Origin: a virus
Lineage: Duplodnaviria; Heunggongvirae; Uroviricota; Caudoviricetes
Reading direction: 5' to 3' (one strand)
DNA: 64,000 nt
Virus record (IMG/VR): IMGVR_UViG_2740892442_000004
The notes under the pieces were generated by a model. That model was not told where the DNA came from, ran no database searches, and worked only from the letters and a program-made list of their open reading frames with translations. Shown piece by piece: positions 9,999-63,843 of the stretch. Every line of letters starts with the position of its first letter. Within the stretch, counting starts at the first letter, position 1. A program made the translations under genes and the position numbers.

Positions 9999-10510
9999 AA
10001 CAATTTTTCGATAGATTTTGTAGGATAGAACAAAGAACGCTCGTTGTTACCAACCAGCTGGATAAAGCCTAAACTTTTATAAAACGCCTTGGCTTTGTCA
10101 TTTAACGCCTCAACGAAAAGTCCATGAATGCCTACAGCAAGAGATGCATTGTACACAACGCGCATTGCATGTGTTACAAGCATTGAGCCAAATCCTTGAC
10201 CTTGAAGGGACTTGTCCAAAGCCAGCCTACCCAAAGTAACACTTGGAACATTCCGATAAGGAACCTTCTTTTGTTTGCTTCTTGAAGGTAAGGACTCCTT
10301 TTCAAAACAACTACCTGACAAAGTGTAATATCCTAACACTTTTGGCCTTTCTTCTTGAGTGCAAAGCACATAAGCACGAAGAATTTTTCCCTCATGCTGC
10401 CTTTTTAAGTGGTTGGCTAAAAAGGCGTTTAGTGACTCTTCGCCGCAATCAAAACCGTTTAGATCATAATCTTTCTCTCCAGAGAAAATCTCTATCGTTG
10501 TATTGCTCAC
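9989..10510 (-). CDS. GNAT-family acetyltransferase toxin (TacT/AtaT-like type II TA toxin)
   Basis: 173 aa; GTG start with GGAG ribosome-binding site; motif RLALDKSLQGQGFGSMLV...AVGIHGLFVEALNDKAKAFYKSLGF characteristic of GNAT toxins; directly downstream of a DUF1778-like gene. Confidence 0.8.
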   Translation of the reverse strand: MSNTTIEIFSGEKDYDLNGFDCGEESLNAFLANHLKRQHEGKILRAYVLCTQEERPKVLGYYTLSGSCFEKESLPSRSKQKKVPYRNVPSVTLGRLALDKSLQGQGFGSMLVTHAMRVVYNASLAVGIHGLFVEALNDKAKAFYKSLGFIQLVGNNERSLFYPTKSIEKLFEE

Positions 10511-10517
10511 GAGTAAA

Positions 10518-10787
10518 CTACTCCATGCTTTTCAGACGATCAGCAGCTCGTTTCAGCTTGTCGTTCGGTGCCGGAGGATTGCTTATAGCGTCCATAACCA
10601 GATTCCAGGATTCTTCATTCAGAACTAGTCTACGGTGTTGCTCTATAACTTTCACGGCACGTTCAGATGCACTGCTAACCATAAACTGAGTAATGCTCTG
10701 GTTAGACATTGCGGCAGCTTCCTCGATGATGCTTTTATCGTCATCGGTTAATCTCAAATCGATGCGCTGCTTTTTTAGTGCTGACAT
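10518..10787 (-). CDS. DUF1778-family antitoxin (TacA/AtaR-like)
   Basis: Start ATG 10787 preceded by AGGAGG; MSALKKQRIDLRLTDDDKSIIEEAAAMSNQSITQF... is typical of the ribbon-helix-helix partner of GNAT toxins; 8-nt gap to toxin gene. Confidence 0.75.
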   Translation of the reverse strand: MSALKKQRIDLRLTDDDKSIIEEAAAMSNQSITQFMVSSASERAVKVIEQHRRLVLNEESWNLVMDAISNPPAPNDKLKRAADRLKSME

Positions 10788-11105
10788 GTATTCCTCCTGA
10801 TGGCCGTGATGTAGGAAGGCCATCAATCTCCTCTGTTCAAACTGAGTTTTCGACTCAAAAATTACTTTAAAAGGCTATAGCCCATTACGTGTGCATTATC
10901 AAATTGTGTACGGCATATCACCGTACTTGTAATATAGAGGTCATTGTTACTTTTTTCAACAGACAAATACAAGCTATGATTGCCAATTGTTAATCACAAC
11001 CTACCATTTAACCTTTACACCGCAGCCGTAGGCATTTAGGCTATATCACATATAAGAAAACAAGTTGTTTCAGACGATAATTATATACGCAAAGGGAACT
11101 CTCCA

Positions 11106-11774
11106 ATGACCAAGATCTTTGTGGTTGGCGGCACAAAGGGCGGGCCTGGCAAATCCACCGTTGCCCAGCAAATTGCCGTTTGCCTGAAAGTCAAAAAGAA
11201 GAAGAAGGTTTATATTACCGATATAGATATTCAGCGCACGACAACGAGCTGGTGTGAAGACCGTCGACAGAACGAAGACCTTGAGCTGATTCCTTTTGCA
11301 TACGTTCAGGATGACATCATTAAGCACCTAAAATCGCTTCAGGGTAGAGCTGAGTTTGTAGTGGTAGATGCTGGTGGCTTCGACTCCGAAATTCAGCGAC
11401 AAGCGATGCTGATGGCTGACGTTATCATTATCCCGCTGCGTCCTAAGCGTCGTGATTTGAAATCTTTACGTGACATCGATCCTATTATCGACAATGTTCG
11501 CAATGTAAACGATAAAGTGAAGGTCCGCGCGGTCATGAACCAGTGCCCGGCTTTGCCATCACAAGTGTCTCGCATTCTGGCGGCTAAAGAGATTGTTGAG
11601 ACGTTTGGAATCGAGTCTGCGCCAGTCAATCTATATAACCGCAACGTCTATGATGATGCGGAAGAGTCTGGTCGTTCTATCTTTGAAATGACCGGTAGCG
11701 AGCGCGACAAAAAGGCGGAAGCCGAGTTTGAAGAATTTGTAGATTATCTGTTGAGTCTGGAGGAAGAAGAATAA
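11106..11774 (+). CDS. parA: ParA-family partition ATPase (small type)
   Basis: Deviant Walker A GGTKGGPGKST at N-terminus; 222 aa; followed by a small basic protein gene with overlapping stop/start. Confidence 0.85.
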   Translation: MTKIFVVGGTKGGPGKSTVAQQIAVCLKVKKKKKVYITDIDIQRTTTSWCEDRRQNEDLELIPFAYVQDDIIKHLKSLQGRAEFVVVDAGGFDSEIQRQAMLMADVIIIPLRPKRRDLKSLRDIDPIIDNVRNVNDKVKVRAVMNQCPALPSQVSRILAAKEIVETFGIESAPVNLYNRNVYDDAEESGRSIFEMTGSERDKKAEAEFEEFVDYLLSLEEEE

Positions 11775-12133
11775 TGTCCATGAAAATGGGTGACCTAGCA
11801 AAGCGCAAAGAGCCTGATGCACCGGCTAAGAACACAACTCCTTTGCGCCAACCAGTCAGACCACAGGGACGCCCGACTCGTGGCAAAGAGAAAATTAAAA
11901 GCCGCACAATGTCACTGGAGGACGAATACTTCGAACTGCTGGAGATGATGAAGTTCATCCCTCGCTTCGAGAAGTTCACTCGTTCTGACGTGATTCGAGC
12001 AGCCATTTTCCATCTGGCAGAGAAGTCACCGCAGGAAATCGAGGACATCGTGAAATTGAATGAGGCGATCACCGCTGCCGATGTCACGATGCGTACCGAT
12101 GAAATCAAACGAGAGTTGATGAAGAAAGGTTAA
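11774..12133 (+). CDS. Small partition partner protein (ParG/ParB-like, putative centromere binder)
   Basis: 119 aa, basic N-terminus, translationally coupled to parA (ATAATG overlap); assignment by position only. Confidence 0.4.
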   Translation: MSMKMGDLAKRKEPDAPAKNTTPLRQPVRPQGRPTRGKEKIKSRTMSLEDEYFELLEMMKFIPRFEKFTRSDVIRAAIFHLAEKSPQEIEDIVKLNEAITAADVTMRTDEIKRELMKKG

Positions 12134-12137
12134 AAAT

Positions 12138-12170
12138 CATGCATTGGCGCGTACATTGCGCCAATGCATA
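12138..12170. terminator. Bidirectional hairpin between ParG-like gene and GIY-YIG gene
   Basis: ATGCATTGGCGCG-tacat-TGCGCCAATGCAT 13-bp inverted repeat; a T-run follows on the minus strand. Confidence 0.45.
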
Positions 12171-12185
12171 ACTACAGTGTCAGCT

Positions 12186-12953
12186 TTATGCCGCGCTAAC
12201 ACTATGTTCAGTCCTAACCACCCCAACCTTCACAAAAGGGCTACCGTAGCTTGGTGGCTTCTTGATTAATTTGCCTACATACAGTTTTCTAATATGCTCA
12301 TCGGCTATTCTGCCAACAAATTCATAACGTTTTGTGTCGGGGCCAAGAGCTATATCCCTTGTAAAGTACTGCTGAGAACCGGCTTTGACCCAGCATTCAA
12401 TCTGATAAACTTCCATTATTAGCCCACCATATGTAGCGTAGGCATATTTGAGATTCTCGTCTCTTGGAACCTTTGCCCATACGCCACGCGTAGCTTCATA
12501 TAATGCCAGAGCGGACATTCCTGACTTGTAGGTGCTGTTTAGCAGGAAGGCAAGACCGGCGTGCTCAGGAGCAATTTCAGTTTCCTCTTGCAGCACTAAG
12601 TGATGGTAGGCGTCCAGTGATATTCTGCCCATCATGGAACCACTTCCTCGTACCTTATTCGTAAGCTCTCCGACCCCCATAAGGTCGATGCATGTCGCCT
12701 CAACAAGTTTGGCTGTGGTTTCATCCATACCATGACGAAGAATATCTATGCCTAATTTTTTATTAGCCAAAAGTTCTTTGATCCGCATGGATTTGGGAGA
12801 GTCATCGGGATACTTGATGTGATCGAGACAACGAGTCGATTTGCCTTTTCCTATGTAAAACGGTCTTTTCATCTTGTCTTCTGTATCATAGAGACAGTAA
12901 ACATAGTATTTAGCCTTATCCAATGATCTCGCGTATACCGATAAATCGTCCAT
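12186..12953 (-). CDS. GIY-YIG domain nuclease (free-standing, homing-endonuclease-like)
   Basis: N-terminus YYVYCLYDTEDKMKRPFYIGKGKSTRCLDHI...E matches the GIY-YIG catalytic motif with conserved Arg/His/Glu; about 160-aa C-terminal domain of unknown type. Confidence 0.6.
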   Translation of the reverse strand: MDDLSVYARSLDKAKYYVYCLYDTEDKMKRPFYIGKGKSTRCLDHIKYPDDSPKSMRIKELLANKKLGIDILRHGMDETTAKLVEATCIDLMGVGELTNKVRGSGSMMGRISLDAYHHLVLQEETEIAPEHAGLAFLLNSTYKSGMSALALYEATRGVWAKVPRDENLKYAYATYGGLIMEVYQIECWVKAGSQQYFTRDIALGPDTKRYEFVGRIADEHIRKLYVGKLIKKPPSYGSPFVKVGVVRTEHSVSAA

Positions 12954-13063
12954 TATTGCATCTCTTAGCTACTGACTAATGCGTTCTATTTTACACATAA
13001 GTTTTTAATCAATTTAACAGGCTCAAAGTGTAGAGCTTCTGGGCGTCTAAGACGACAAGTTAT

Positions 13064-13120
13064 GCCTGCTTCTGTATATATAAATAATAAGTAACTTATT
13101 AAATATATACGGAAGCAGGT
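13064..13120 (+). repeat. 57-bp near-perfect palindrome, copy 1 (second copy at 60037-60096)
   Basis: GCCTGCTTCTGTATATAT...ATATATACGGAAGCAGG; arms pair with one U-G wobble when read as plus-strand RNA; AT-rich loop is itself palindromic (AATAAGTaACTTATT). Confidence 0.6.
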
Positions 13121-13235
13121 CTTTTAAAAGACACCACCAGAACAACTCCCTTCCGTTTCCACTTCCAAAAACTGCCACCAGTCGCTATCATCCGCTCATT
13201 GTGATAAGTAAGTAACTACCTACCAGGTGAGACAC

Positions 13236-13976
13236 ATGAGCCAAATCTTTTTCGATACCATCGACAACGACCAGTACGACTTCATGACAGAGTGGAATAC
13301 CGCTGTTATGGACAAGTGGGTCGCTGAAAACATTGGTTTGTCGCGCTGTAAAGACGAGGCTGAACTCTTCGAGACGAAGTGGTTTGATTACCGCGACATG
13401 CATCCTCTCATGGCCACCTGTCTTTTTACGGAGGCATACAAACGTCAGTACTCAAATATCATGCTGACGCACGGTCGTGAACACTTTGAAACAGCTCCGT
13501 TCACCACCGGGTTAAAACGCTTGCCTTATCAGGAGTTGTCGACTGCTAATAAAACGTCGCTATGGAAAGCACGCCAGTTTGCGGATCGCTATTGCTGCTC
13601 ATACGACTACTTTATCTCCACTGTTCTTTCCGCAGCTGCACGACGTCTGTGGGACAAGCTGCCTCGCCCACAGCATTTGTGGCAGCCAGAACTGATTGAG
13701 ATATTTGAAGAGAAATTAGCCAGACGCGCAACAACCCGTCTGGATGACTCTCTGGTTAGCTTTAAGCATATGGGAGACATGCAGTTCAACCCGATTCAGG
13801 AAAGCTATTTTGAGTGGATTCTGGAGCGTTTGCGCACCATCCCTCGCAGTAAGCGCATACGCGCAATTTTCTCCGCTATCTGGCTAATGGAAATCGTTCC
13901 AGAGCGCCTTATTTCCGCCCACTTTCCAGAAGAACTGGAAGAAGCACGGCGGTTTATTGATCCCCTATCTAATTAA
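13236..13976 (+). CDS. Hypothetical protein
   Basis: ATG 13236 with AGGTGA ribosome-binding site; 246 aa; no recognisable motifs. Confidence 0.5.
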   Translation: MSQIFFDTIDNDQYDFMTEWNTAVMDKWVAENIGLSRCKDEAELFETKWFDYRDMHPLMATCLFTEAYKRQYSNIMLTHGREHFETAPFTTGLKRLPYQELSTANKTSLWKARQFADRYCCSYDYFISTVLSAAARRLWDKLPRPQHLWQPELIEIFEEKLARRATTRLDDSLVSFKHMGDMQFNPIQESYFEWILERLRTIPRSKRIRAIFSAIWLMEIVPERLISAHFPEELEEARRFIDPLSN

Positions 13977-14019
13977 CTAATACTAGAAAACAATTTGTTT
14001 AAAAAACAAAGGAAAGCAC

Positions 14020-15360
14020 ATGACCGAACTTTGCCATACAGGACGCGGGCTGTCCGAAGAGTTTGATGAAGATTTCCAGAACAGACTGACGGCATATTTT
14101 TGTCGTGATCACGAGTTTCTTACTCGTGCGGGAGATCTGGTTGTGCCTAGCCAATTTGCCAATGCGGCCAATGCCATATTGGTTAATATGGTTTCGGGCT
14201 ATTACCGTATGTACAAGAGCGCGCCCTCTTCATCTGCAATTCTGGATATGCTTAAGCGTGCGAAACGCGATAAGACTATCCGTGAGGAACTATTCGCCGA
14301 TGTTGTTGCTGCGTTTAAGCGCATCCTTGCAGAAAAATTGTCCGATACCTCGTACATGGTTGACCAGGTATCAACCTTCGCAAAAAGCGTAGCGTTTGAT
14401 GATGCTCTGATTAAGGCTGCTGAACTGAAAGAGAAAGGCGACTTTCAGGGGGCGATGGCAATCATGGCCAAGGTTCAGCAGATTGGATCGAACGAAGCGA
14501 CCGGAATCTATGACTACTACACCTCCGCAAGTGAGCGATTGAAAGCGCGTGAATATGAGGCTTCAGAGGAGTATGTACCAAACAGTATTACAACTGGACT
14601 CCCTCTTCTCGATAGGTTGCTGTACCAAAAAGGCTGGGCAAAGCGCGAAATGGTGCTCTTCATGGGGTTCGCTAAATCCGGTAAATCGACCGCAATGGGT
14701 GAGTTTTCCATAAACGCAACGCTTGCTGGCTACAATGTTCTGTATCTCTCGCTGGAGGTTCACACCACCATTTTATCCGACCGTTTTGATGCAAGATTGT
14801 CGGAGACGGAAATGTCCAAGCTGGTGGAACGGCGCGATGAGGTTCATCGTAAGTTGGCAGAGTTGGGAGCCACGAAGGGGATTGGTAGTTTGTGGGTTGT
14901 CGAGCGTCCGTCAGGAAGTATGTCACCGGCAGACCTGGATCGTATGCTTAACAGCATGAAAGCCAATGGCATGGTGCCTGACATGGTTGTTGTCGACTAC
15001 GCAGATTTGATGCGTGCCAGTTATGACCTTCGTGATGATCGCGCCAACATTCGTAGTATCTACACCGATTTACGTGCTCTTTATGACAAGCATAACGTTG
15101 CTGGTATCACGGCGTCGCAAACAAACCGTGAAGGTGGCGCGTCAGAAGTTGCCACAATGATGCACGCTGCCGACAACATCGAAAAAGTACGTATTGCTGA
15201 CCTGGTAATAACGATCAACAAAACCGAAGAAGAAGAAGCGAAAGGAGAGGCTCGTCTCTACTTTGCTGGTTCGCGTAACCAGCAGGGAGGGATCAGCATT
15301 CGCGTTAAACAAAACCTCGAACAAATGCGCTTCATTGAGCGAATCTTAGACGTTACCTAA
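14020..15360 (+). CDS. Replicative DNA helicase, DnaB-like
   Basis: Walker A GFAKSGKST, Walker B VVVDYADLM, RecA-like C-terminal domain; preceded by the AAACAATTTGTTT dyad and the AAAGGAAAGCACATG initiation context. Confidence 0.8.
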   Translation: MTELCHTGRGLSEEFDEDFQNRLTAYFCRDHEFLTRAGDLVVPSQFANAANAILVNMVSGYYRMYKSAPSSSAILDMLKRAKRDKTIREELFADVVAAFKRILAEKLSDTSYMVDQVSTFAKSVAFDDALIKAAELKEKGDFQGAMAIMAKVQQIGSNEATGIYDYYTSASERLKAREYEASEEYVPNSITTGLPLLDRLLYQKGWAKREMVLFMGFAKSGKSTAMGEFSINATLAGYNVLYLSLEVHTTILSDRFDARLSETEMSKLVERRDEVHRKLAELGATKGIGSLWVVERPSGSMSPADLDRMLNSMKANGMVPDMVVVDYADLMRASYDLRDDRANIRSIYTDLRALYDKHNVAGITASQTNREGGASEVATMMHAADNIEKVRIADLVITINKTEEEEAKGEARLYFAGSRNQQGGISIRVKQNLEQMRFIERILDVT

Positions 15361-15441
15361 AAAATAAGCGTGGAGAACACCTCCACGCTTGATTCATTGG
15401 TGAAACAACTTTTCTTTTGCCAAACCACAAAAGAAAAACAC

Positions 15442-16623
15442 ATGAGCCTTTATGTTATATCAACATTTAGGTTGGTCACAATATTGCCTGTTAAAAGTGG
15501 AATTATCGTGAGCGAGCTGAAAGAGCTAATTACCGAATTAGATTTTGAACAATGGTTGGATACTGAAGGTATCGTTTATCGACGTGGAAGCGTGAGTGCT
15601 CGCGGTCGTGAAGTGAATATCAAGGAGTGTCCGGTATGCGGCAGCTCCAACTGGAAGGTATATTTCAATCTGACCAGCGGCGTAGGCAAATGCTTCGCTG
15701 GTGATCATCCCGAAGAGATTCAGTTCAATAAGCTGGTTTTCCTCAAGCACTACAGCGGCAAATCACGACGACAGTTCGAGGAATATGTGCAGAACGCTCT
15801 TCTTTCGCAGGGGTGGGCACCAAAGAAAGAAGAAATAGTGCTTGCAAGCACAGTCGAGTTAGAGGGGCCACTTGCACTCCCTCGTCATTACGAACTTCCT
15901 ATAGATGGCCGTCTTCCAGACTATCTGGTTGAACGAAACATATCGCCTGAAATGGCAAAGTATTTTGACCTACGATACTGCGTCGAAGGTAAGCACGCCT
16001 ATGTAGATCCGTATACAGATCAGGTTAAAGGACAGATATTCGATATGCGAATACTGATACCGGTTTACGATCTGGATGGGGTAATGAAGACATTTCAGGG
16101 ACGAGACATTACCGGTACAGCAGAACGCCGCTACCTCTTCCCTATGCAGCTGCCGGCGTCGGGTAAGTTTCTCTACAACGGCCACAACGCAGTCGGGAAA
16201 CAAACAGTCGTTGTGTGTGAAGGGGCATTTGACGTAATGGGCGTGAAGCGAGCCATCTTCGACGAAAAGACGCTGAGGGATTATGTAGAGCCAATTGGCA
16301 CGTTCGGGATGCACTTGTCCGGAAATATGAATGAGGACGCTGAAGATCAGTTGGGCGCGTTCCTGACGCTCAAGGCGCGTGGATTACGCAACGTCATCAT
16401 GATGTGGGATAGCGAGAAGCAAGCGATCCGCAACACCATGTCGGCGGCCAAACGCCTCACCAGCATCGGACTAAATGTCAAAGTGGCCTGTCTGGGCGAA
16501 GAAGGTCTCGACCCCGGCGACGCGACGCCAGAGCAGATCCTCAAAGCCTATTATCGTGCCAAGCCTTACTCCAAACAGCTGGAGTTAAAATGCAAAGTGC
16601 TCGGTATCAAGTCACTCGTGTAG
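15442..16623 (+). CDS. DNA primase (zinc-ribbon + TOPRIM)
   Basis: CPVCGSSNWKVYFNLTSGVGKCFAGDH zinc-binding motif; TOPRIM-like VVVCEGAFDVMG; start moved to ATG 15442 (AAAGAAAAACACATG context) because the track's longest ORF begins inside the upstream terminator hairpin. Confidence 0.8.
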   Translation: MSLYVISTFRLVTILPVKSGIIVSELKELITELDFEQWLDTEGIVYRRGSVSARGREVNIKECPVCGSSNWKVYFNLTSGVGKCFAGDHPEEIQFNKLVFLKHYSGKSRRQFEEYVQNALLSQGWAPKKEEIVLASTVELEGPLALPRHYELPIDGRLPDYLVERNISPEMAKYFDLRYCVEGKHAYVDPYTDQVKGQIFDMRILIPVYDLDGVMKTFQGRDITGTAERRYLFPMQLPASGKFLYNGHNAVGKQTVVVCEGAFDVMGVKRAIFDEKTLRDYVEPIGTFGMHLSGNMNEDAEDQLGAFLTLKARGLRNVIMMWDSEKQAIRNTMSAAKRLTSIGLNVKVACLGEEGLDPGDATPEQILKAYYRAKPYSKQLELKCKVLGIKSLV

Positions 16624-26770: not shown

Positions 26771-28879
26771 ATGTCTAAAAAACGTTCCATCAAAGAGGTT
26801 CAGGACTTCCGTGACAGTGTAAAACGAGTAGTCGCTCTCCTTTCAGGTAAAAACATCCCTGTTGCAGAACGAGGGGACGACGCTTATGTACGCTATAACG
26901 ATGATGGAGAGCCAATTCTCGTAAACATCCCATCAATCCCGGATAACGCAACACCGGCATTGATGAATGCTGTGCGCGGATTTCTCGATCATGAGGTTGC
27001 TCACATTTTGTTTACCGATATTCGTGTGTCCAACAAAATGAGAGAAAAAGGACGCGTTCCTTCCTGGTCGCTATGGAATGCCTTAGAAGACGTGTTCATC
27101 GAGCGAAAAATGGGTCAGGTCTTTAACGGAACAAGACGTAATCTGATGGCAACTCAGCGCCTTATAATCGAAAAAGTCTTTAAACCAAAGGCTTCAGAGG
27201 CTATTGCTTATTGTGGCAAAGATCAGCGCGCGCTTTTTCTAAACTTCTTTCTCTGTCCGGTTGTAAGAGCCTGGGATGGCCAAGCACCGTTCGTAGATTT
27301 CATGGATGAATATTGGCCTGTCATTGAGAAACCAATTTCATTATTAAAAGAACATGGTATCGATGTGGCCGTGCGTAACATGTCTTGCACCGAGGATTGT
27401 GTAAAGGTGGCTGCGACCATAGCTAAGATCCTCAAAGACACTGAAAGTGAAAGCAAAGGTAAGGAGTCAGCTCCGGGAAAAACTTCCGATCCTTCAGACG
27501 CTGACCAGACGGATGCCTCTGGAGAAAACAATGAAGACAACGAAGATCATGAGACACCCTCAGCGTTAGATAATCACAAATCTATCAAATCAGAATCACA
27601 CAGTAAGCACAAACATGATAATAACGACGGTGATGATTCAGATAATTCTGAATCATCAGAAACAATATTCGATGATACAGAAAATGATAAAGAGGTATCA
27701 GATTCTGATGCTTCTGATAACGCGGTGTCAGAATCATTTACCGCTGACCACGAAAAAAGAAAAACGACAGAAGACGGCTCTTCAGATATCCCAACTCCGT
27801 CAAAAATGAGTCTGGAAGAGGCTTTAGAGGAGCTGGATAGCATAGAAGATGAAGTCGGAGGCATGACAGAAGATGCTCTATCCGAAACGATTAAAAGCGA
27901 GTTAACAGAAAGCTCGAAAAGCGAATACAGGCCATACAATCGCTCATACGACTTCATCGGCTCGATTGATCAGGCAGAAGCCCATATCAAACGGCTTATT
28001 AAAACATTCTCCGATATTGATTTAGGTGGATATCCAATCAGCCGTTATCGCATCGTTCCTGAAGGCAACCAACTCTTCGACAAATATATTGAAAAGCACC
28101 TTTCGTCAGGTGTTTCGTCGACGCTGGCAAAAGACCTGGAGCGAGCAATAGCAAGCAGAAACAGAGTTCAGTTTATACCTGGCCAGCGTCGGGGGCGCAT
28201 TCATGGTTCAAGTATCTACAGATTAACAATGAATGATGATCGCGTGTTTCGTAAAAAAGAAGAATCTAAAGCCGTTAACGCCTGTGTTCAACAAGTGATT
28301 GATTTATCGGGTTCAATGAGTGGCGAAACGATAAAACTAGCTCTTGCAAGTGCATATACCATCGCCGATGCACTTGATCGAATAAATGTTCCCAACATTA
28401 TCACCGGCTTCACTACATTTGGTAGTCATATGGCGGCAGGAGAACTTAAGGCTGTCAAGTATGAGTTCTCTCGCTTTGAATCTTTAATGCTACCTATCAT
28501 CAAAAATTGGAATGAAAAGGTAAATTCTCGCGAAGTTCGCTCACGTATGGGGTGCGTAGGCTACACATTCCCACTTCTTAATAACGTGGATGGTGAAAGC
28601 ATAGCCAGCCTTGCATCGTTATTTTCCGGTCGCATGGAGGACAGGAAGATCATGCTTGTTCTGAGTGATGGCGCGCCGTGGGCTGTTGGGAGAGGTTTTG
28701 ACGCTCATTTGCGTTCAGTTGCGAAGCAAATTGAAACGCAGACTGATATTGATTTGATGGCAATTGGCATCATGACTGACGCACCGGAGAGATTTTACTC
28801 AAATCATGCCCTGGTAACGAGCGTTGATAGTCTTGGTTCATCTGTAGTTACTGAACTATCTCGTATCATTTTAAAGTGA
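26771..28879 (+). CDS. CobT-like protein with C-terminal von Willebrand factor A domain
   Basis: 702 aa; long acidic Ser/Asp/Glu-rich linker; C-terminal VWA-like region (DLSGSMSG MIDAS-like motif); immediately upstream of a CobS-like AAA+ ATPase gene. Confidence 0.7.
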   Translation: MSKKRSIKEVQDFRDSVKRVVALLSGKNIPVAERGDDAYVRYNDDGEPILVNIPSIPDNATPALMNAVRGFLDHEVAHILFTDIRVSNKMREKGRVPSWSLWNALEDVFIERKMGQVFNGTRRNLMATQRLIIEKVFKPKASEAIAYCGKDQRALFLNFFLCPVVRAWDGQAPFVDFMDEYWPVIEKPISLLKEHGIDVAVRNMSCTEDCVKVAATIAKILKDTESESKGKESAPGKTSDPSDADQTDASGENNEDNEDHETPSALDNHKSIKSESHSKHKHDNNDGDDSDNSESSETIFDDTENDKEVSDSDASDNAVSESFTADHEKRKTTEDGSSDIPTPSKMSLEEALEELDSIEDEVGGMTEDALSETIKSELTESSKSEYRPYNRSYDFIGSIDQAEAHIKRLIKTFSDIDLGGYPISRYRIVPEGNQLFDKYIEKHLSSGVSSTLAKDLERAIASRNRVQFIPGQRRGRIHGSSIYRLTMNDDRVFRKKEESKAVNACVQQVIDLSGSMSGETIKLALASAYTIADALDRINVPNIITGFTTFGSHMAAGELKAVKYEFSRFESLMLPIIKNWNEKVNSREVRSRMGCVGYTFPLLNNVDGESIASLASLFSGRMEDRKIMLVLSDGAPWAVGRGFDAHLRSVAKQIETQTDIDLMAIGIMTDAPERFYSNHALVTSVDSLGSSVVTELSRIILK

Positions 28880-33938: not shown

Positions 33939-34212
33939 TAAAGAATTATGGCGCTTGTTGAGGAAGTCACTCCTCTTACGCACTTTGTTTTGCCATGCCG
34001 GCAGTTAGCTTCTGCCTTTGACTATTCATGCGGCAACCCCGCATTTCGCCACAATGGGCAATTCACTTTTATGGAATAAACTGGCCGTTGTGTCGATTTA
34101 ATTAGCATGGCCTTACCATGCTAATTTATTCAACTTGTACAATCCTACAAATCTATCCACTCAGGCTTACACCGTCTTCGTTATTGTAGAAATGAGGATC
34201 ATCAGCGTTGAA

Positions 34213-34428
34213 TCAGCTTAGAGCAACGACATTTGCTGCTGCTGGGCCTTTAGCCCCATTCTCGATAGAGAATTCGACCTGCTGGCCTTCTTCCAAAGTG
34301 CGGAAATTATTACTCTGAATTGCCGAAAAATGTACAAAAACATCTTTACTGCCATCAGCAGGAGAAATAAAGCCAAAGCCTTTATCAGAGTTAAACCATT
34401 TTACTAAACCAGTCATTTTATTAGACAT
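34213..34428 (-). CDS. Cold-shock protein, CspA family
   Basis: [38 protein letters not shown]... with RNP motifs; start ATG 34428 with AAGAAGG ribosome-binding site; long 5' leader. Confidence 0.85.
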
Positions 34429-34757
34429 AGATATTACCTTCTTAATTTTGTGAGCCACATAGTGCGGCGAGAATTTGATCTGTATAGATTGGGACTTACT
34501 TAGGCACTTAAGGAGGAGACTCACGAAGAAGGGAAATCAGAAGATAACACTGAACTGAGACTGCTTTACTAAAACTGCTTACATAAGGTCTGTCTTGCAA
34601 ACCAACGATGCTATTAACGCATACCCCTTCTTTTCATGCAACCTTTATTTTTCAAAGATAACTAATTTTTGTCACCATTGGTTTAGTAAACGTTAACGAA
34701 CCAGACGATGCCAGACACCTTTACAGAGAACAGATGCCCGCCAATTGGCGGGCATCA

Positions 34758-35606: not shown

Positions 35607-35860
35607 TCGCCTCCGATAATAGTATTCTATTCACAGTGTTGACATCTGTCAACGGCGACTGAATTTCATCCGTTCATGCCACACCCCCATCCATCTCATG
35701 TATGTGACCTAAAGATGGTCAGCACAGCTTACCAAAATAAGACAACTAATTATCTTCGGTGATCTCAATATTTTCCCCTGAACAAAGTTGACATGACGCC
35801 ATAAACCCGTTCTCTGTTTGATATAATTGATACAGATTTTATAAGTAGGAACCTATTAGA

Positions 35861-36292
35861 GTGAACACTGATATTTTTTCTAAAATCATGGCCGATCTGG
35901 AGTTCGACCGCGACAACCTTGAGGAAGTATGGCGTAAACAGCCACGGCTTTTAATGGAGTATGGGTCAAAACTAGCGCAGGCAGATCGAGATGTCGCAGA
36001 GGCAAAACTTAACCTTGAAGCTGTTGAAGCAAAGCTATACGACACAGAGCGTAAGAACTTGAGTATGAACGGCATTAAGTTCAACGAGTCTGTACTGGAC
36101 GCTAAGGTTAAAACAAACCCACAGTATCTGTCTAAACGGCAGAAGTTGGATGAAGCACGGCACATCGCAGACATATACAAACATGCTGTCGCCGCCTTTT
36201 CGCATCGCCGAGACATGATCGTTCAGGCGTCAAAGATGGCCATCGTTGAATTAGAGCGATTAGGCTCTGAACGCTTTATTACTCCCCGTTGA
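35861..36292 (+). CDS. Hypothetical protein (possible UvsY-like recombination mediator)
   Basis: 143 aa, predicted helical; lies just upstream of the SSB; similarity to UvsY is weak and positional. Confidence 0.3.
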   Translation: MNTDIFSKIMADLEFDRDNLEEVWRKQPRLLMEYGSKLAQADRDVAEAKLNLEAVEAKLYDTERKNLSMNGIKFNESVLDAKVKTNPQYLSKRQKLDEARHIADIYKHAVAAFSHRRDMIVQASKMAIVELERLGSERFITPR

Positions 36293-36409
36293 TTTTTGAT
36301 AGATAATAAGTAAGCACTGATCTATCATTTAACAGCTCGAAAGAGCCACGAATGAACGAAAGCCCAACGCGCATAGCGCCATCGGCCAAATCACAACAAG
36401 GAGAAACAC

Positions 36410-37438
36410 ATGTCTAAGACATTACTTGATTTGCTTAACAAAACTCGTGAAGACATTGCCGCCAAACGTGGCAACAACGTTGATCTGACTCGCTTAAAAG
36501 ACGGCGTCAACTATATCCGCATCTTCCCGAATAAAGACGACCCAAACGGTAAGTTCTTCCAGACTTTCGGTATGCACTACGTTAAGTATCAGAACGAGGA
36601 AGGTAAAGAAGCAACCAACGCTTATATTTGTGAGCAACATACTCACGGTCGCGCTTGTCAGCTATGCGAAATGGTTATGGAAGGTCGCGCTCGTCACAAG
36701 GGTAACAAAGCAATGGAAGAACGCATCGGTCAAATGCGTGCCACTCCTCGCTACCTGGTCAACGGCATTCTTTCTGCTCGTGAGGATTTCGCAGATGCTG
36801 AGAAATGCCAGTTAATCGAGCTGCCGTCTACTGTATTCGATGATATCTGCAAAGCAATCACCGAAGACATCGCTGATGATATCGGCAATCCACTGAGCAA
36901 AGAGGAAGGCTACGCATTCCTGATTAAACGTACTGGCTCTGGTCGCGATACCAAATATGACGTCTCGCCTAAGCGTAAAGTCTACAAAGGCGATATCGAA
37001 GATAAATTCTGGAACACCCAGCATGATCTGATCGCATACGCAAATCAGGCTGATGAAACTCGTCTTCTGTCGACAGTTCGCACTATGGGTCGTCTGATTG
37101 GCATCGCTGCACCAACTGCCGCAGCATCTGCACCAGCAATTTCCTCAACCGCGAAAACATCGGCTGCGGCACTACCTGGATTTGGCTCTGTCACTGGTCA
37201 TACAGAAGGAGCGACGGCTGTAGCAACCGCGCACACACCGGCTTCTGAACCAACCAGTCTGGTTGATGAAGAAATCCTCCGTGCCGTTGAAACTGAATTT
37301 AAACCAGAGGCAAGTTCCGCTGCCGTTGCCGTATCAGTCAAAGAGTCTGAAGCAGTCGCAGCGACATCTGTAGCAACCGCATCTGCGACGGAAGATGAAG
37401 GTCTGGATGACCTACTGAGAGAGCTGGACTCTCTGTAA
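36410..37438 (+). CDS. Single-stranded DNA-binding protein, T4 gp32-like
   Basis: IRIFPNKDDPNGKFFQTFGMHYV OB-fold start, zinc ligands CEQHTHGRACQLC, acidic C-terminal tail DDLLRELDSL. Confidence 0.6.
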   Translation: MSKTLLDLLNKTREDIAAKRGNNVDLTRLKDGVNYIRIFPNKDDPNGKFFQTFGMHYVKYQNEEGKEATNAYICEQHTHGRACQLCEMVMEGRARHKGNKAMEERIGQMRATPRYLVNGILSAREDFADAEKCQLIELPSTVFDDICKAITEDIADDIGNPLSKEEGYAFLIKRTGSGRDTKYDVSPKRKVYKGDIEDKFWNTQHDLIAYANQADETRLLSTVRTMGRLIGIAAPTAAASAPAISSTAKTSAAALPGFGSVTGHTEGATAVATAHTPASEPTSLVDEEILRAVETEFKPEASSAAVAVSVKESEAVAATSVATASATEDEGLDDLLRELDSL

Positions 37439-40952: not shown

Positions 40953-41001
40953 TCGCAATTATCTTATTAAGAAAACAATTTGTTTAAAAGGATAAGAAAA
41001 C

Positions 41002-41427
41002 ATGACAGCTATTAAGAAACTCTACGATGCCGCAAACGTGGCTCTGGATGTTATTGATGATGAAGCAGCAAAAGGCTTTCCTGAACCTGATTGGGCGCAT
41101 CAGCTACGAAACGCTATCGCCGAAATGAATCCACCAGATCCGACCACCGACGAGACAGACTGGCAGCGATTTATCCGTATGTACGCTCAGGAAATAGGTC
41201 CAACGCCAACGGCAGAGCAAGCAATGCTGCTGAAATACTTCAAAGAGGCGGGAGAGGATTTACCAATTGATGACTCAGCATATTGGTTCCACTGCGCATG
41301 GCGTAAGTATGACGTGATATTCACACAAGGCATGGGGAGCAAAGATATGGTTGTGTGGCATCTACTCCATATAGACACAGCCGTTGACAGAGTTATTGAA
41401 CAGTTTTTCCCTAAACAAGAAGATTGA
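41002..41427 (+). CDS. Hypothetical protein
   Basis: 141 aa; preceded by the AAACAATTTGTTT dyad and conserved initiation context. Confidence 0.45.
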   Translation: MTAIKKLYDAANVALDVIDDEAAKGFPEPDWAHQLRNAIAEMNPPDPTTDETDWQRFIRMYAQEIGPTPTAEQAMLLKYFKEAGEDLPIDDSAYWFHCAWRKYDVIFTQGMGSKDMVVWHLLHIDTAVDRVIEQFFPKQED

Positions 41428-52255: not shown

Positions 52256-52327
52256 TTTGTAAGCCTTGTTTAAACACATAAGATAACAACTTGTTTAAAC
52301 GCACCAAAAAAGAAAAAGGAAAAACAC

Positions 52328-53470
52328 ATGTCATATTCAACGTTCCGTTTGGGTGCTAATGATGCAACCAAAGAGCCTATGTTCCTCGGACAATCTGTCA
52401 ACGTGGCACGTTACGATCAGCAAAAATACCGTGATTTTGAAAAGTTGATTGAACGTCAATTGTCTTTCTTCTGGCGGCCGGAAGAAGTTGATATTTCGAG
52501 CGATCGTATCGACTTCAACACGAAGCTGCGGGACCACGAACGTCACATTTTTCTGAGCAATCTCCGTTATCAAACGTTACTCGATTCAGTTCAGGGACGT
52601 AGCCCAAATGCAACGCTGCTGCCGCTTATCTCTATTCCTGAACTGGAAACGTGGGTTGAAACATGGTCTTTCTCTGAGACTATCCATAGCCGCAGCTACA
52701 CCCACATTATTCGTGGCATGGTGGACGATCCGAGCATTGTTTTTGACGGTATTGTTACGGATGAAGAAATCATCAACCGAGCGATCAGTATCTCTGCTGA
52801 ATATGACAGGCTTTATGGGATGACCTGCGAGCGCCAGTCGTTAGGTGAGAAAGAGTTTGAACGTCTGTACGTAAATGAATATGGCTGGGAGCCATACCCT
52901 TTGCATCGTCAGCTTTTCCGCACGTTGGTGTCCATTAATGCGCTTGAGGCGATCCGTTTCTATGTAAGTTTTGCATGTACGTTTGCCTTTGGCGAACGGA
53001 AGTTGCTTGAGGGTAACACCAAAATTATGCGCTTTATTGCCCGTGATGAAGCTCTGCATTGCGAAGGAACTGAACGCATGATCCGCTTCATGCGTACCGG
53101 TCGCGAAGGTTTATTGTGGAAAGAGATTGCTGCTGATGAAGAAAACGTCATTTACGACACCATGAAATCAGTCGCCGAACAAGAAATGAACTGGGCAGAC
53201 TATCTCTTCAAAGACGGTTCGATGATTGGTTTAAACGCGGATATTCTGAAGACCTATGTAAAATACCGAACCAATCTGGCTATGAATCGTCTTGGCCTGA
53301 AGGCTTTATTTCCAGAAGTTACCACTGATCCGCTGGTCTGGATGAACAAGTGGTTGTTAACCGACACACTGCAAATTGCACCACAAGAGGCAGAGCAAAG
53401 CACATATCTGGTAGGTCAGATCGATTCTACCGTGGATAAGGCTTCTCTAAGCCAGTTTGCAGACCTGTAA
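52328..53470 (+). CDS. nrdB: Ribonucleotide reductase class Ia small subunit NrdB
   Basis: [55 protein letters not shown] is near-colinear with the E. coli NrdB N-terminus; 380 aa. Confidence 0.9.
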
Positions 53471-60036: not shown

Positions 60037-60096
60037 AGCCTGCTTCTGTATATATAAATAACTACATATTAATTATTAATATACGGAAGCAGGCTG
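60037..60096 (+). repeat. About 60-bp palindrome, copy 2 of the element at 13064-13120
   Basis: AGCCTGCTTCTGTATATATAAATA...ATATACGGAAGCAGGCT; same arms and same single A/G asymmetry as copy 1; likely long-stem terminator after the methyltransferase gene. Confidence 0.6.
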
Positions 60097-62457: not shown

Positions 62458-62550
62458 CGGTTGTTAGTGCATATGCATTGACCGTCTTTTCGTAAGCAAT
62501 TCATGTAACTAGAAAACAACTTGTTTTAACAAATAACAAAAGGAAAGCAC

Positions 62551-62976
62551 ATGTTAGGTTTATTCAAAAAGAAAACTCGTAAAGCTGTTATCGAGGTCAA
62601 AAAAATGGAGAACCGAGATGCGGTTGAAGCCACCGTGTGGGGCGCGTACATGATCTCCTATGCCGATGGCACATGCGACGCAAAGGAAATTTCCATTCTT
62701 GAGAAAACAATTGCAGCTCTGCCTGCGTTTTCTCCGTTTGCTGGTGAGATTGCCCAAATGAGCGCCAATATCCGTGCTCAATACGAAGCCTCACCGCGCC
62801 GCGCTAATGCCCAGGCTTTACGTGAGCTGGCTGATGTGGCCGGGACTAATGATGCAGTAGATGTACTGTGTCTGTGCCTTGATATTGCCGACCAAGACGG
62901 TATTGGCGAACAAGAAGAGCTGGCCCTGAAAAAGATCGCACAGGCGCTTCAGTTGTCACTGGATGCTTATCTCTAA
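62551..62976 (+). CDS. TerB-like domain protein (tentative)
   Basis: 141 aa; pattern ATVWGAYMISYADGTCDAKEISILEKTIAAL...ALKKIAQALQLS resembles TerB-type helical domains; dyad motif upstream. Confidence 0.4.
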   Translation: MLGLFKKKTRKAVIEVKKMENRDAVEATVWGAYMISYADGTCDAKEISILEKTIAALPAFSPFAGEIAQMSANIRAQYEASPRRANAQALRELADVAGTNDAVDVLCLCLDIADQDGIGEQEELALKKIAQALQLSLDAYL

Positions 62977-63134: not shown

Positions 63135-63273
63135 TGACAAGGGCCAAATGGCCCTTGTGTTTCGTTGACCGAAATAGAGAGTTTGCACCTTTACGTTTAG
63201 CTTGCTCCCCTTTTATGCCACATCACAATAAAGCCAATAAGAAAACAACTTGTTTAAGCATTAGGAAAAACAC

Positions 63274-63843
63274 ATGTGCAAGAAATGCAAAGCGATAGCT
63301 GATGAACAAAACGCCTTATTCGAAGAAATGGATGCTAATGAACTGGTCAAAATGTTAGCCATTCTTCGAGGAATAGAAGACGTTTCCATATTTGAGAGAG
63401 TGGTTACAGCACTTAATTTTGAGTCCACCTTTGAAGAGCCAACTCAGGTTGTAGCTTTAGCACATCATTTCGGTGTTCATTATCTTGCTGAAAAAGAGCG
63501 CGCTGATAAGTTGCAGGCGACTTTGGATATGGTGAGCGAGACTCAACGAACTGATGACACTAACAAGAGTGAGGCGATTATTGCCAGCAAAGATCGTGAA
63601 ATTGCTGGGCTTAAATCCTCTCTAACGATGTTGATGTCTGCGTTCAATCTTATGTCTTCTCAGGCGGGTTATAAAATGCCATCACTAAACAGCGATGATC
63701 CGATGGCCGTTCGTCAGCTTTTGGGAGCAATGGCCGACCAACTCGACGACACAAAGAGTCGGCTTGAAGACATGATGCGTGAGTTAAGCCATCGACATAA
63801 CCTCGCAACACAGCCACACAAAGCCTTTCAAAGCTCTAATTGA
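63274..63843 (+). CDS. Hypothetical protein
   Basis: 189 aa; preceded by AAACAACTTGTTT dyad and AGGAAAAACACATG context. Confidence 0.45.
   Translation: MCKKCKAIADEQNALFEEMDANELVKMLAILRGIEDVSIFERVVTALNFESTFEEPTQVVALAHHFGVHYLAEKERADKLQATLDMVSETQRTDDTNKSEAIIASKDREIAGLKSSLTMLMSAFNLMSSQAGYKMPSLNSDDPMAVRQLLGAMADQLDDTKSRLEDMMRELSHRHNLATQPHKAFQSSN

Follow-up and report, generated by a model that had tools for sequence, protein, structure and literature searches.

What reads the 13-base-pair (bp) palindrome AAACAA-N-TTGTTT that lies at positions 13988–14000 of virus record IMGVR_UViG_2740892442_000004, directly 5' of a gene for a DnaB-like helicase, and with what consequence for that gene? The question was approached by computational analysis of a stretch of 64,000 nucleotides (nt) of this record (referred to as the window) and of its relatives. 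The window belongs to an SSU5-like phage-plasmid of Escherichia coli and corresponds approximately to 18–82 kb of phage Cyrano, to which it shows 97% identity (82% to Salmonella phage SSU5, 77% to Klebsiella phage-plasmids). Its gene content runs from tail genes to lysis, parA, replication, recombination and nucleotide metabolism. Complete genomes of Cyrano, SSU5 and Klebsiella pJN2-26 were assembled for comparison, and upstream regions were aligned for the window, these three genomes and a Klebsiella ozaenae plasmid (CP027615). The palindrome is probably the DNA operator of a symmetric, phage-plasmid-encoded repressor that silences genes in the plasmid state.

An earlier reading of the window (the original prediction) had described the palindrome as repeated upstream of parA, the helicase gene, nrdB, a TerB-like gene and two further open reading frames (ORFs), and this description was confirmed. 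Exact copies of AAACAANTTGTTT are found at 11058, 13988, 40973, 62514 and 63243 (five, against 0.03 expected), and copies with one mismatch and the same 5' flank at 26739 (AAATAATTTGTTT, before cobT) and 52284 (TAACAACTTGTTT, before nrdB). None of 100 shuffled sequences gave five exact copies, which contradicts an occurrence at chance level. A weight matrix was built from the seven sites (consensus A-Y-W-AGA-AAACAA-N-TTGTTT) and scanned over both strands of the window; the seven scored 34–40 bits, and nothing else exceeded 8 bits. Copies with two mismatches (8193, 15403, 60923) are at chance level (10 matches, 6.3 expected). All seven sites are non-coding, lie on the + strand and precede the ATG of a + strand gene by 16–35 nt, a wider range than the 20–30 nt first proposed; the zone within 60 nt upstream of + strand gene starts, which contains all of them, accounts for 6.9% of the window. 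The extension AGA is present on the 5' side of every copy. The conserved unit is longer than the palindrome and asymmetric, (A)AT-N10-AGAAAACAA-N-TTGTTT-a, and includes a 16-base sequence around the palindrome. The sites are listed below from the −10-like hexamer to the end of the dyad.

11039–11070, + strand: site 1, 5' of parA (ATG at 11106); GGCTAT, 10 nt, AGAAAACAAGTTGTTT; dyad at 11058–11070
13969–14000, + strand: site 2, 5' of the DnaB-like helicase gene (ATG at 14020); TCTAAT, 10 nt, AGAAAACAATTTGTTT
26720–26751, + strand: site 3, 5' of cobT (ATG at 26771); CTACAT, 10 nt, AGTAAATAATTTGTTT
40954–40985, + strand: site 4, 5' of a DUF7238 gene (ATG at 41002); CGCAAT, 10 nt, AGAAAACAATTTGTTT
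52265–52296, + strand: site 5, 5' of nrdB (ATG at 52328); CTTGTT, 10 nt, AGATAACAACTTGTTT
62495–62526, + strand: site 6, 5' of the TerB-like gene (ATG at 62551); AGCAAT, 10 nt, AGAAAACAACTTGTTT
63224–63255, + strand: site 7, 5' of a gene for a 189-residue protein of unknown function (ATG at 63274); CACAAT, 10 nt, AGAAAACAACTTGTTT

Site 3 is the weakest of the copies (34 bits); the original prediction had taken it for a half-site, and it is a full dyad with one mismatch. A terminator-like hairpin stands directly 5' of site 4, and site 5 is preceded by the hairpin that lies after nrdA. The positions first given for the helicase gene, the 41002 ORF and the 63274 ORF were reproduced (13988, 40973 and 63243), and those for parA, terB and nrdB had to be shifted by one (to 11058, 62514 and 52284). 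The central base, described as T or C, is G at parA. The gene labels were upheld by Pfam (ParA/MipZ ATPase, DnaB-like helicase, CobT, NrdB, TerB). The initiation context that had been said to follow every dyad, GGAAANCACATG, follows four of the seven and occurs at four genes without a dyad; it is enriched in the window (8 matches, 1.4 expected). This translation-start context, (G)GAAA-N-CACATG, stands at eight + strand genes (14011, 15433, 19189, 39868, 41474, 52319, 62542 and 63265) and is independent of the dyad. Two further observations concern individual sites. The DUF7238 gene starts with ATG in the window (41002) and with ATA at the corresponding position of Cyrano (58633), where the annotated start lies farther downstream, possibly a start-codon difference or an annotation shift. 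At 15403–15415, just after a terminator and 25 nt before an ATG at 15441 (GAAAAACACATG context), the AAACAA left arm is intact and the right arm degenerate; the segment falls inside a listed ORF (15370–16623), the counterpart of the primase gene, and may be a decayed dyad copy, although it is statistically the same as chance.

The anatomy of the element was examined by aligning 40 gene-proximal sites from three genomes, anchored on the dyad. The two 6-nt arms are conserved to the same degree, and the information content of the central base is zero; the AGA of the 5' flank is as well conserved as the arms and has no matching TCT on the 3' side. A T located 11 nt before AGA is invariant (40 of 40), and similarity to TATAAT peaks at one spacing only (3.3 of 6 positions, against a background of about 1.6). 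A2 and T6 of this −10-like hexamer are both present at 16 sites (background about 2), several sites carry extended −10 elements (TGnGATAAT or TGGTATTAT), and the interval from the hexamer to the dyad holds more conserved positions (AAT, A, C, AA). If transcription began at the standard 7 nt past the hexamer, the dyad would span about +8 to +20, with AGA at about +5. The element points in the direction of the gene that follows it at all seven window sites and at the 40 sites in relatives, and each copy goes with a −10-like element. Several promoters of the relatives possess an additional, oppositely oriented copy (AAACAANTTGTTTTCT), which lies 51 bp farther upstream with its centre near −38, often directly after a terminator hairpin. 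A distance of 51 bp makes nearly five helical turns and would put both copies on one face of the DNA. Some ten such inverted copies were found in the relatives, and in these the AGA extension belongs to the other strand.

The dyad is not a peculiarity of the window. Over the whole genome, copies with no more than one mismatch number 18 in Cyrano and 20 in SSU5, with a similar set in pJN2-26; Cyrano, SSU5, pJN2-26 and the K. ozaenae plasmid each hold 9–14 exact copies. In an unbiased count of all dyads with 6-nt arms and spacers of 0–5 nt, AAACAA-N1-TTGTTT ranked first in three genomes (11 exact copies in SSU5, 9 in Cyrano and 14 in the divergent K. ozaenae plasmid; 4–7 for the next-best dyad). 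Sites additional to those of the window precede the small terminase gene (two tandem copies) and about ten small genes clustered at 93–98.5 kb of Cyrano. In the upstream regions of parA, helicase, cobT, nrdB, terB-like and orf63274 from E. coli, Salmonella and Klebsiella elements, the dyad is the best-conserved block and its flanks drift. The parA block is kept in Cyrano, SSU5, pJN2-26 and the K. ozaenae plasmid, the helicase site is kept in all five genomes compared while its flanks diverge, and the cobT orthologues of SSU5 and pJN2-26 are nearer to the consensus than the window copy. Conserved proteins of the element matched 800–1000 sequenced plasmids (Klebsiella, E. coli, Enterobacter and Citrobacter), and also Salmonella Typhi pHCM2 and Yersinia pestis pMT1; dyad copies are retained in pMT1. 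A distant SSU5-like plasmid from Moellerella has no dyad at lytic genes, and the only intergenic near-match found there is a degenerate copy, AGAAAACAATATATTT, upstream of parA. A scan of viral contigs with the 16-mer gave, among the matches listed, mostly single chance hits and no phyletic resolution. As a separate observation, the K. ozaenae plasmid CP027615 (L132, approximately 35640–35725, equivalent to window 26673–26770) has an unrelated long palindrome, CATACCCATAAATAATAAGCATTTATTTATGGGTATG, in place of the AAACAA dyad of cobT, which suggests operator swapping at this promoter.

The state of the dyad-linked genes in a lysogen was taken from published per-gene RNA sequencing of Cyrano in LF82 lysogens (S1 Table; median background 9.8; PMC9928086). 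Genes located directly after a dyad read 5–25 in this data set, as listed below.

terS: 7.1
helicase: 21
cobT: 7.8
CYRAN_58: 5.7
nrdB: 12.9
CYRAN_85: 7.0
CYRAN_87: 7.1
CYRAN_101: 7.5
CYRAN_105: 12.8
CYRAN_106: 12.2
CYRAN_110: 6.7
CYRAN_111: 25.5

The exception to this silence is the parA operon, the three genes of which read 50, 89 and 55 (PMC9928086), as would be expected if the operon were autoregulated. Several of the silent genes stand behind near-consensus extended −10 elements, so their silence requires some means of keeping them off.

An operator for a dimeric regulator of a co-regulated set of genes, as the original prediction had it, fits these data best: the copies are enriched, placed and oriented consistently, set at a fixed distance from the −10-like element, deeply conserved and, in a related lysogen, followed by silent genes. 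From this we infer protein binding, the position of the start site, the repressive direction and the identity of the binder. Recognition of double-stranded DNA is favoured because the arms are symmetric, the central base is free, inverted copies carry AGA on the other strand and variants are uncompensated: in each of the single-arm variants listed (AAACATG.., ..CATGTTT, ..CGTGTTT, ..TTATTT, ..TTGGTT, AAACTAC..), the partner position is unchanged. The set is not specifically a replication and metabolism regulon: over whole genomes it extends to the terminase/late operon, to some ten small early genes and to the operon for partition. Mechanistically, a two-fold symmetric (dimeric or tetrameric) repressor encoded by the phage-plasmid would bind AGAAAACAA-N-TTGTTT at approximately +5 to +20, downstream of weak-to-strong promoters of the sigma-70 type, and at some promoters of the relatives also a second, inverted operator centred near −38. 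Its binding would occlude RNA polymerase or block promoter escape, and some 15–20 separate transcription units (partition, helicase, cobT, nrdB, terB-like, small early genes and, outside the window, the terminase operon) would thereby be kept silent during plasmid maintenance.

Several points weigh against such a repressor. The silence in the lysogen is equally compatible with a missing activator. The AGA extension lacks a symmetric partner and always faces the −10 element, which a simple symmetric dimer leaves unexplained. The promoter assignment itself is a prediction, because −35 regions are poor and the seven −10-like hexamers of the window are weak; a simple promoter scan did not call the helicase site as a promoter. 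A clean phyletic or covariation signal was obtained for none of the candidate binders: the dyad is unchanged where the FljA-like protein of the element is 34% identical and where the partner of ParA is 48% identical, and pMT1 keeps dyads without this partner or the par module. The searchable literature gave no transcription starts, footprints or binding data for any SSU5-like element. Regarding a reader supplied by the host, we know of no consensus site (PurR, KdgR, LacI-family, Fur or IHF) with a fitting spacing.

The proteins encoded by the element were ranked by phyletic pattern, conservation and expression; the best candidate for the binder, put forward tentatively, is the partner of ParA.

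11774–12133, + strand: candidate binder, a protein of 119 residues encoded directly after the small ParA, with a ribbon-helix-helix (RHH)-like pattern

The order of the two genes, a small ParA-type ATPase followed by its partner, is that found for type Ib centromere- or operator-binding proteins, and by position and pattern the protein looks like a partition partner or operator-binding protein. In 12 aligned homologues, down to 47–48% identity, the segment RPQGRPTRGK..IKSRTMS.EDE and the putative helix start FTRSDVIRAAI are invariant; an invariant segment parallels an invariant dyad and was counted in favour of the candidate. The dyad in front of its operon is perfect, and no other dyad-linked unit is expressed in the lysogen; an autoregulated repressor would be expected to show this pattern. 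Wherever the dyad persists, the putative DNA-reading segment shows no variation; it differs in Moellerella, which retains just the degenerate copy at parA. This covariation is suggestive and consists of a single contrast. On the other side, the RHH fold is predicted and weakly supported (one family member gave a sub-threshold RHH_1 match), and no repeat array, normal for type Ib centromeres, was found beside the par operon (10400–14100). The protein is annotated in Cyrano as 'RelE/ParE putative toxin', yet shows no toxin domain and no Pfam match, and belongs to PHROG 5111, of unknown function. Extremely few proteins belong to its family (25 clusters at 90% identity), and a profile search of 1.84 billion proteins returned 18 representatives and no independent genomic context.

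Other candidates were also considered. The element encodes an FljA-family protein (PF03614, E value 1e-80), the model of which has a tandem Hfq-like fold that suits RNA binding and not a DNA dyad. Its covariation is ambiguous, the dyad being identical at 66% and 34% protein identity and absent at 25%. A small protein of the CYRAN_117 type combines expression in the lysogen with an RHH-like pattern; it was rejected because its putative strand residues vary among genomes with an identical dyad. CYRAN_37 and CYRAN_123, with weak winged-helix-like Pfam matches, are at background level in the lysogen, as are the ParB-like CYRAN_119 and CYRAN_120, encoded outside the window (values of 5–9.5; PMC9928086), and all four were rejected for this reason. 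The early-cluster proteins all fall into PHROGs of unknown function.

If the ParA partner were the binder, the dyads might act as its joint centromere and operator, and the protein would double as a global silencer of 15–20 lytic promoters. This combination, which would carry the logic of KorB and omega over to a phage, appears doubtful. With about 20 sites per copy of the element, a rise in copy number would titrate the partner and could help to flip the element into lytic expression.

It is unlikely that the dyad serves without a dedicated repressor, as part of a block of about 35 bp (−10, AACAC, AGAAAACAANTTGTTT) that would form a promoter/initial-transcribed-region cassette spread by duplication. 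Such cassettes would be read by the host RNA polymerase alone, or together with a phage activator or specificity factor, and would define a temporal promoter class. The rigid spacing to the −10-like element, the extra conserved positions between the two and an asymmetric AGA that always faces the −10 element are consistent with this, as is the silence in the lysogen, for which a missing activator would account equally well. About 70 bp, including the −35 region (TTTTnnGCCTTTT), are common to the early-cluster copies, a pattern expected of paralogous cassettes, and one gene of Moellerella (23721 in L134) has an upstream backbone of the AACACACATAAG type without the dyad. A core-promoter element, however, would not be expected to be palindromic or to recur independently of orientation at −38, and when orthologous sites are compared, the conservation of the dyad far exceeds that of the remaining cassette. 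Positions +8 to +20 are atypical for activators. No gene for an RNA polymerase, sigma factor or activator was seen among the annotations of the window and its relatives, which were read without a dedicated search. Promoters with the extended element TGnGATAAT should, moreover, fire unaided, yet they are silent in the lysogen.

Control at the RNA level is distinctly improbable. Here the FljA-family protein would bind the A-rich/U-rich AGAAAACAANUUGUUU at the 5' end of the mRNA, just upstream of the Shine–Dalgarno sequence, so that translation is blocked and the message destabilised, as by FljA on fliC mRNA. The likeness to FljA–fliC lies in the bona fide FljA-family protein encoded by relatives and in the predicted position of the motif in 5' leaders, next to the ribosome-binding site. 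Reverse-complement symmetry would, however, be purposeless for recognition of single-stranded RNA. A hairpin formed by the dyad is unstable (in three of the four leaders folded, its stability did not exceed that of shuffled sequence), and compensatory changes are lacking. Inverted copies, with AGA on the other strand, occur upstream of promoters; the E. coli fliC 5' untranslated region (UTR) contains no similar sequence (the Salmonella fliC leader was outside the comparison); and the dyad does not change when the FljA-like protein falls to 34% identity. Within the lysogen the target mRNAs are at background and the FljA-like gene is barely expressed (18 against 9.8; PMC9928086). In a search of Rfam 15 at the gathering threshold, no family matched at the dyad sites; the window matched only tRNAs and the cspA thermoregulator, both located elsewhere.

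Little more can be said for the dyads being primarily dispersed centromere (parS-like) sites of the type Ib ParA system, with any effect on transcription secondary, and this too is improbable. A perfect copy upstream of parA occupies the position at which centromere-binding proteins of type Ib attach, very strong conservation marks the putative DNA-reading segment of the partner protein, and the one intergenic near-match found in Moellerella likewise lies upstream of parA. Precedents exist in the sites of N15, which lie among phage promoters, and in KorB of RK2 and omega of pSM19035. Type Ib centromeres are, however, clustered repeats, and the region 10400–14100 contains a single dyad. Segregation would need no strict placement relative to −10-like elements and start codons, pMT1 keeps the dyads and lacks the par module, and an alternative centromere candidate is available in an inverted repeat beside the par region (13065–13119, again at 60039–60093). 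This large repeat, CCTGCTTCTGTATATA ... TATATACGGAAGCAGG around an AT-rich spacer of about 21 bp, is present in these two copies in the window, the first of which adjoins the par region, and its right arm recurs in Cyrano and pJN2-26, immediately 5' of the dyads near the terminase gene. The repeat might serve as a centromere, in packaging or in DNA bending.

The XRE-family (CI-like) regulator encoded at 25822–26208, which the original prediction had named as a possible binder, belongs more plausibly to a second dyad. The intergenic palindrome TAAGTA-NN-TACTTA is enriched in the window (28 matches with no more than two mismatches, 1.6 expected) and occurs in longer forms such as TAGGTAAGTATTTACCTA. 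It was recorded at the following positions.

4251, 8461, 13209, 17799, 21218, 24207, 28898, 35842 and 36307: second dyad
39830, 41451, 41782, 45160, 49844, 54559, 59392 and 61608: second dyad
26239–26254: second dyad, in the XRE control region

Among the 46 intergenic gaps of the window, the second dyad is present in 14 and the AAACAA dyad in seven, and no gap has both. The divergent control region of the XRE gene (26209–26459) holds GGTAAGTGCTTACC together with TAGGTAAG/CTTACC half-sites and no AAACAA dyad; the Klebsiella and Moellerella versions are similar. TAAGTA-NN-TACTTA is probably the operator of the XRE repressor, and the simplest reading is a pair of regulons in which the second dyad answers to the XRE protein. 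That the XRE regulator reads the AAACAA dyad is therefore very unlikely, even though it is expressed in the lysogen (96 against 9.8; PMC9928086), its gene adjoins the integrase in a module found in 995 plasmids including pHCM2 and pMT1, and site 3 lies about 530 bp from the gene; its own control region carries the other dyad, the two dyads never share a gap, and half-site centres only 7 bp apart are unusual for helix-turn-helix dimers. As an observation on the same module, SSU5 (NC_018843, approximately 42.6–42.8 kb) lacks the integrase–XRE–small ORF segment of window 24725–26672, which the window shares with Cyrano, pHCM2, pMT1 and its relatives from Klebsiella and Moellerella; the SSU5 phage that was sequenced may have lost the XRE repressor by deletion.

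For the preferred reading, a dispersed operator of a phage-plasmid repressor, the searchable literature yielded no description of the AAACAA motif, of any SSU5-like operator or of SSU5-like lysis–lysogeny circuitry. The closest logic, by analogy, appears to be that of the scattered C1 operators of P1 and, more loosely, of the stoperators of L5; neither the sequence nor a protein homologue is shared. P1 is likewise a plasmid-prophage in which a short site at many promoters, including those of a DnaB-type helicase and of replication and accessory genes, keeps dispersed lytic units off. Its operators are asymmetric sites of 17 bp bound by monomers, whereas the site described here is a perfect dyad of 13 bp at a fixed position downstream of the −10 element, and a second, independent dyad class shares the task; no sequence similarity and no C1 homologue were seen. 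The stoperators bound by gp71 of L5 resemble the present sites in their dozens of copies, their location in short intergenic spaces, their consistent orientation with transcription and the implied genome-wide silencing. They are asymmetric, lie away from promoters and block elongation, whereas the AAACAA dyads have a symmetric core, a fixed distance to a −10-like element and inverted copies at about −38.

Two further likenesses concern partition. In KorB of RK2 (13-bp O_B palindromes) and omega of pSM19035 (an RHH protein reading heptads), partition and global repression are united: a palindrome of odd length, or a set of short repeats, is spread over many promoters of a single replicon, the protein that binds it can act as partner to a ParA ATPase, and the par operon has a copy in front of it. 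By contrast, ParB-like genes in the relatives are not expressed in the lysogen, and the candidate binder is small, of a very narrow family and with a weakly supported RHH fold; its targets would be phage lytic genes. N15 is, like the present element, a phage-plasmid, and palindromes read by a partition protein are scattered among its phage genes and able to influence expression. It has four sites, sopC centromere sites dispersed among phage promoters and bound by SopB (ParB-type), as against 15–20 sites in strict promoter-proximal placement here, where a role in partition is putative. From the FljA–fliC mRNA operator, known from flagellar phase variation in Salmonella, the present sites differ in showing no similarity to the E. 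coli fliC leader; dyad symmetry and inverted copies favour DNA recognition.

Other features were recorded in the course of the analysis. A tRNA cluster at 21985–22638 (Asn-GTT, Tyr-GTA, Thr-TGT and Ser-TGA) shows 83–90% identity to the tRNA regions of P1/P7/D6-type phages. A full-length Rfam match to the cspA thermoregulator (34188–34606, − strand, 185.7 bits) indicates a phage-plasmid-borne gene for a cold-shock protein with a predicted 5' UTR thermosensor. The early-gene cluster of the relatives includes a gene-poor stretch of about 1–1.5 kb (Cyrano approximately 94.3–95.2 kb, equivalent to L004 approximately 35900–36800; SSU5 approximately 90.4–91.5 kb; pJN2-26 approximately 25.5–27.1 kb), which holds an inverted AAACAA dyad, extra TTGTTTT/AAAACAA half-sites and a conserved CGCTCCCGTTGCGTTAT segment. 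No Rfam match was obtained in this stretch; it could be an origin or a locus for a non-coding RNA.

SSU5-like phage-plasmids are very common and clinically relevant, and phage-plasmids as a class carry antibiotic-resistance genes (PMC9600943). The present analysis provides a cis-regulatory map of such an element, in which two mutually exclusive dyad classes account for 21 of 46 intergenic gaps and one class stands at a fixed distance from the promoter. Together with the short lists of candidate binders, the map makes the regulation of the family directly testable, and it gives handles for inducing or curing SSU5-like elements. Should the partition partner prove to be the binder, plasmid maintenance would be linked to the silencing of phage genes.

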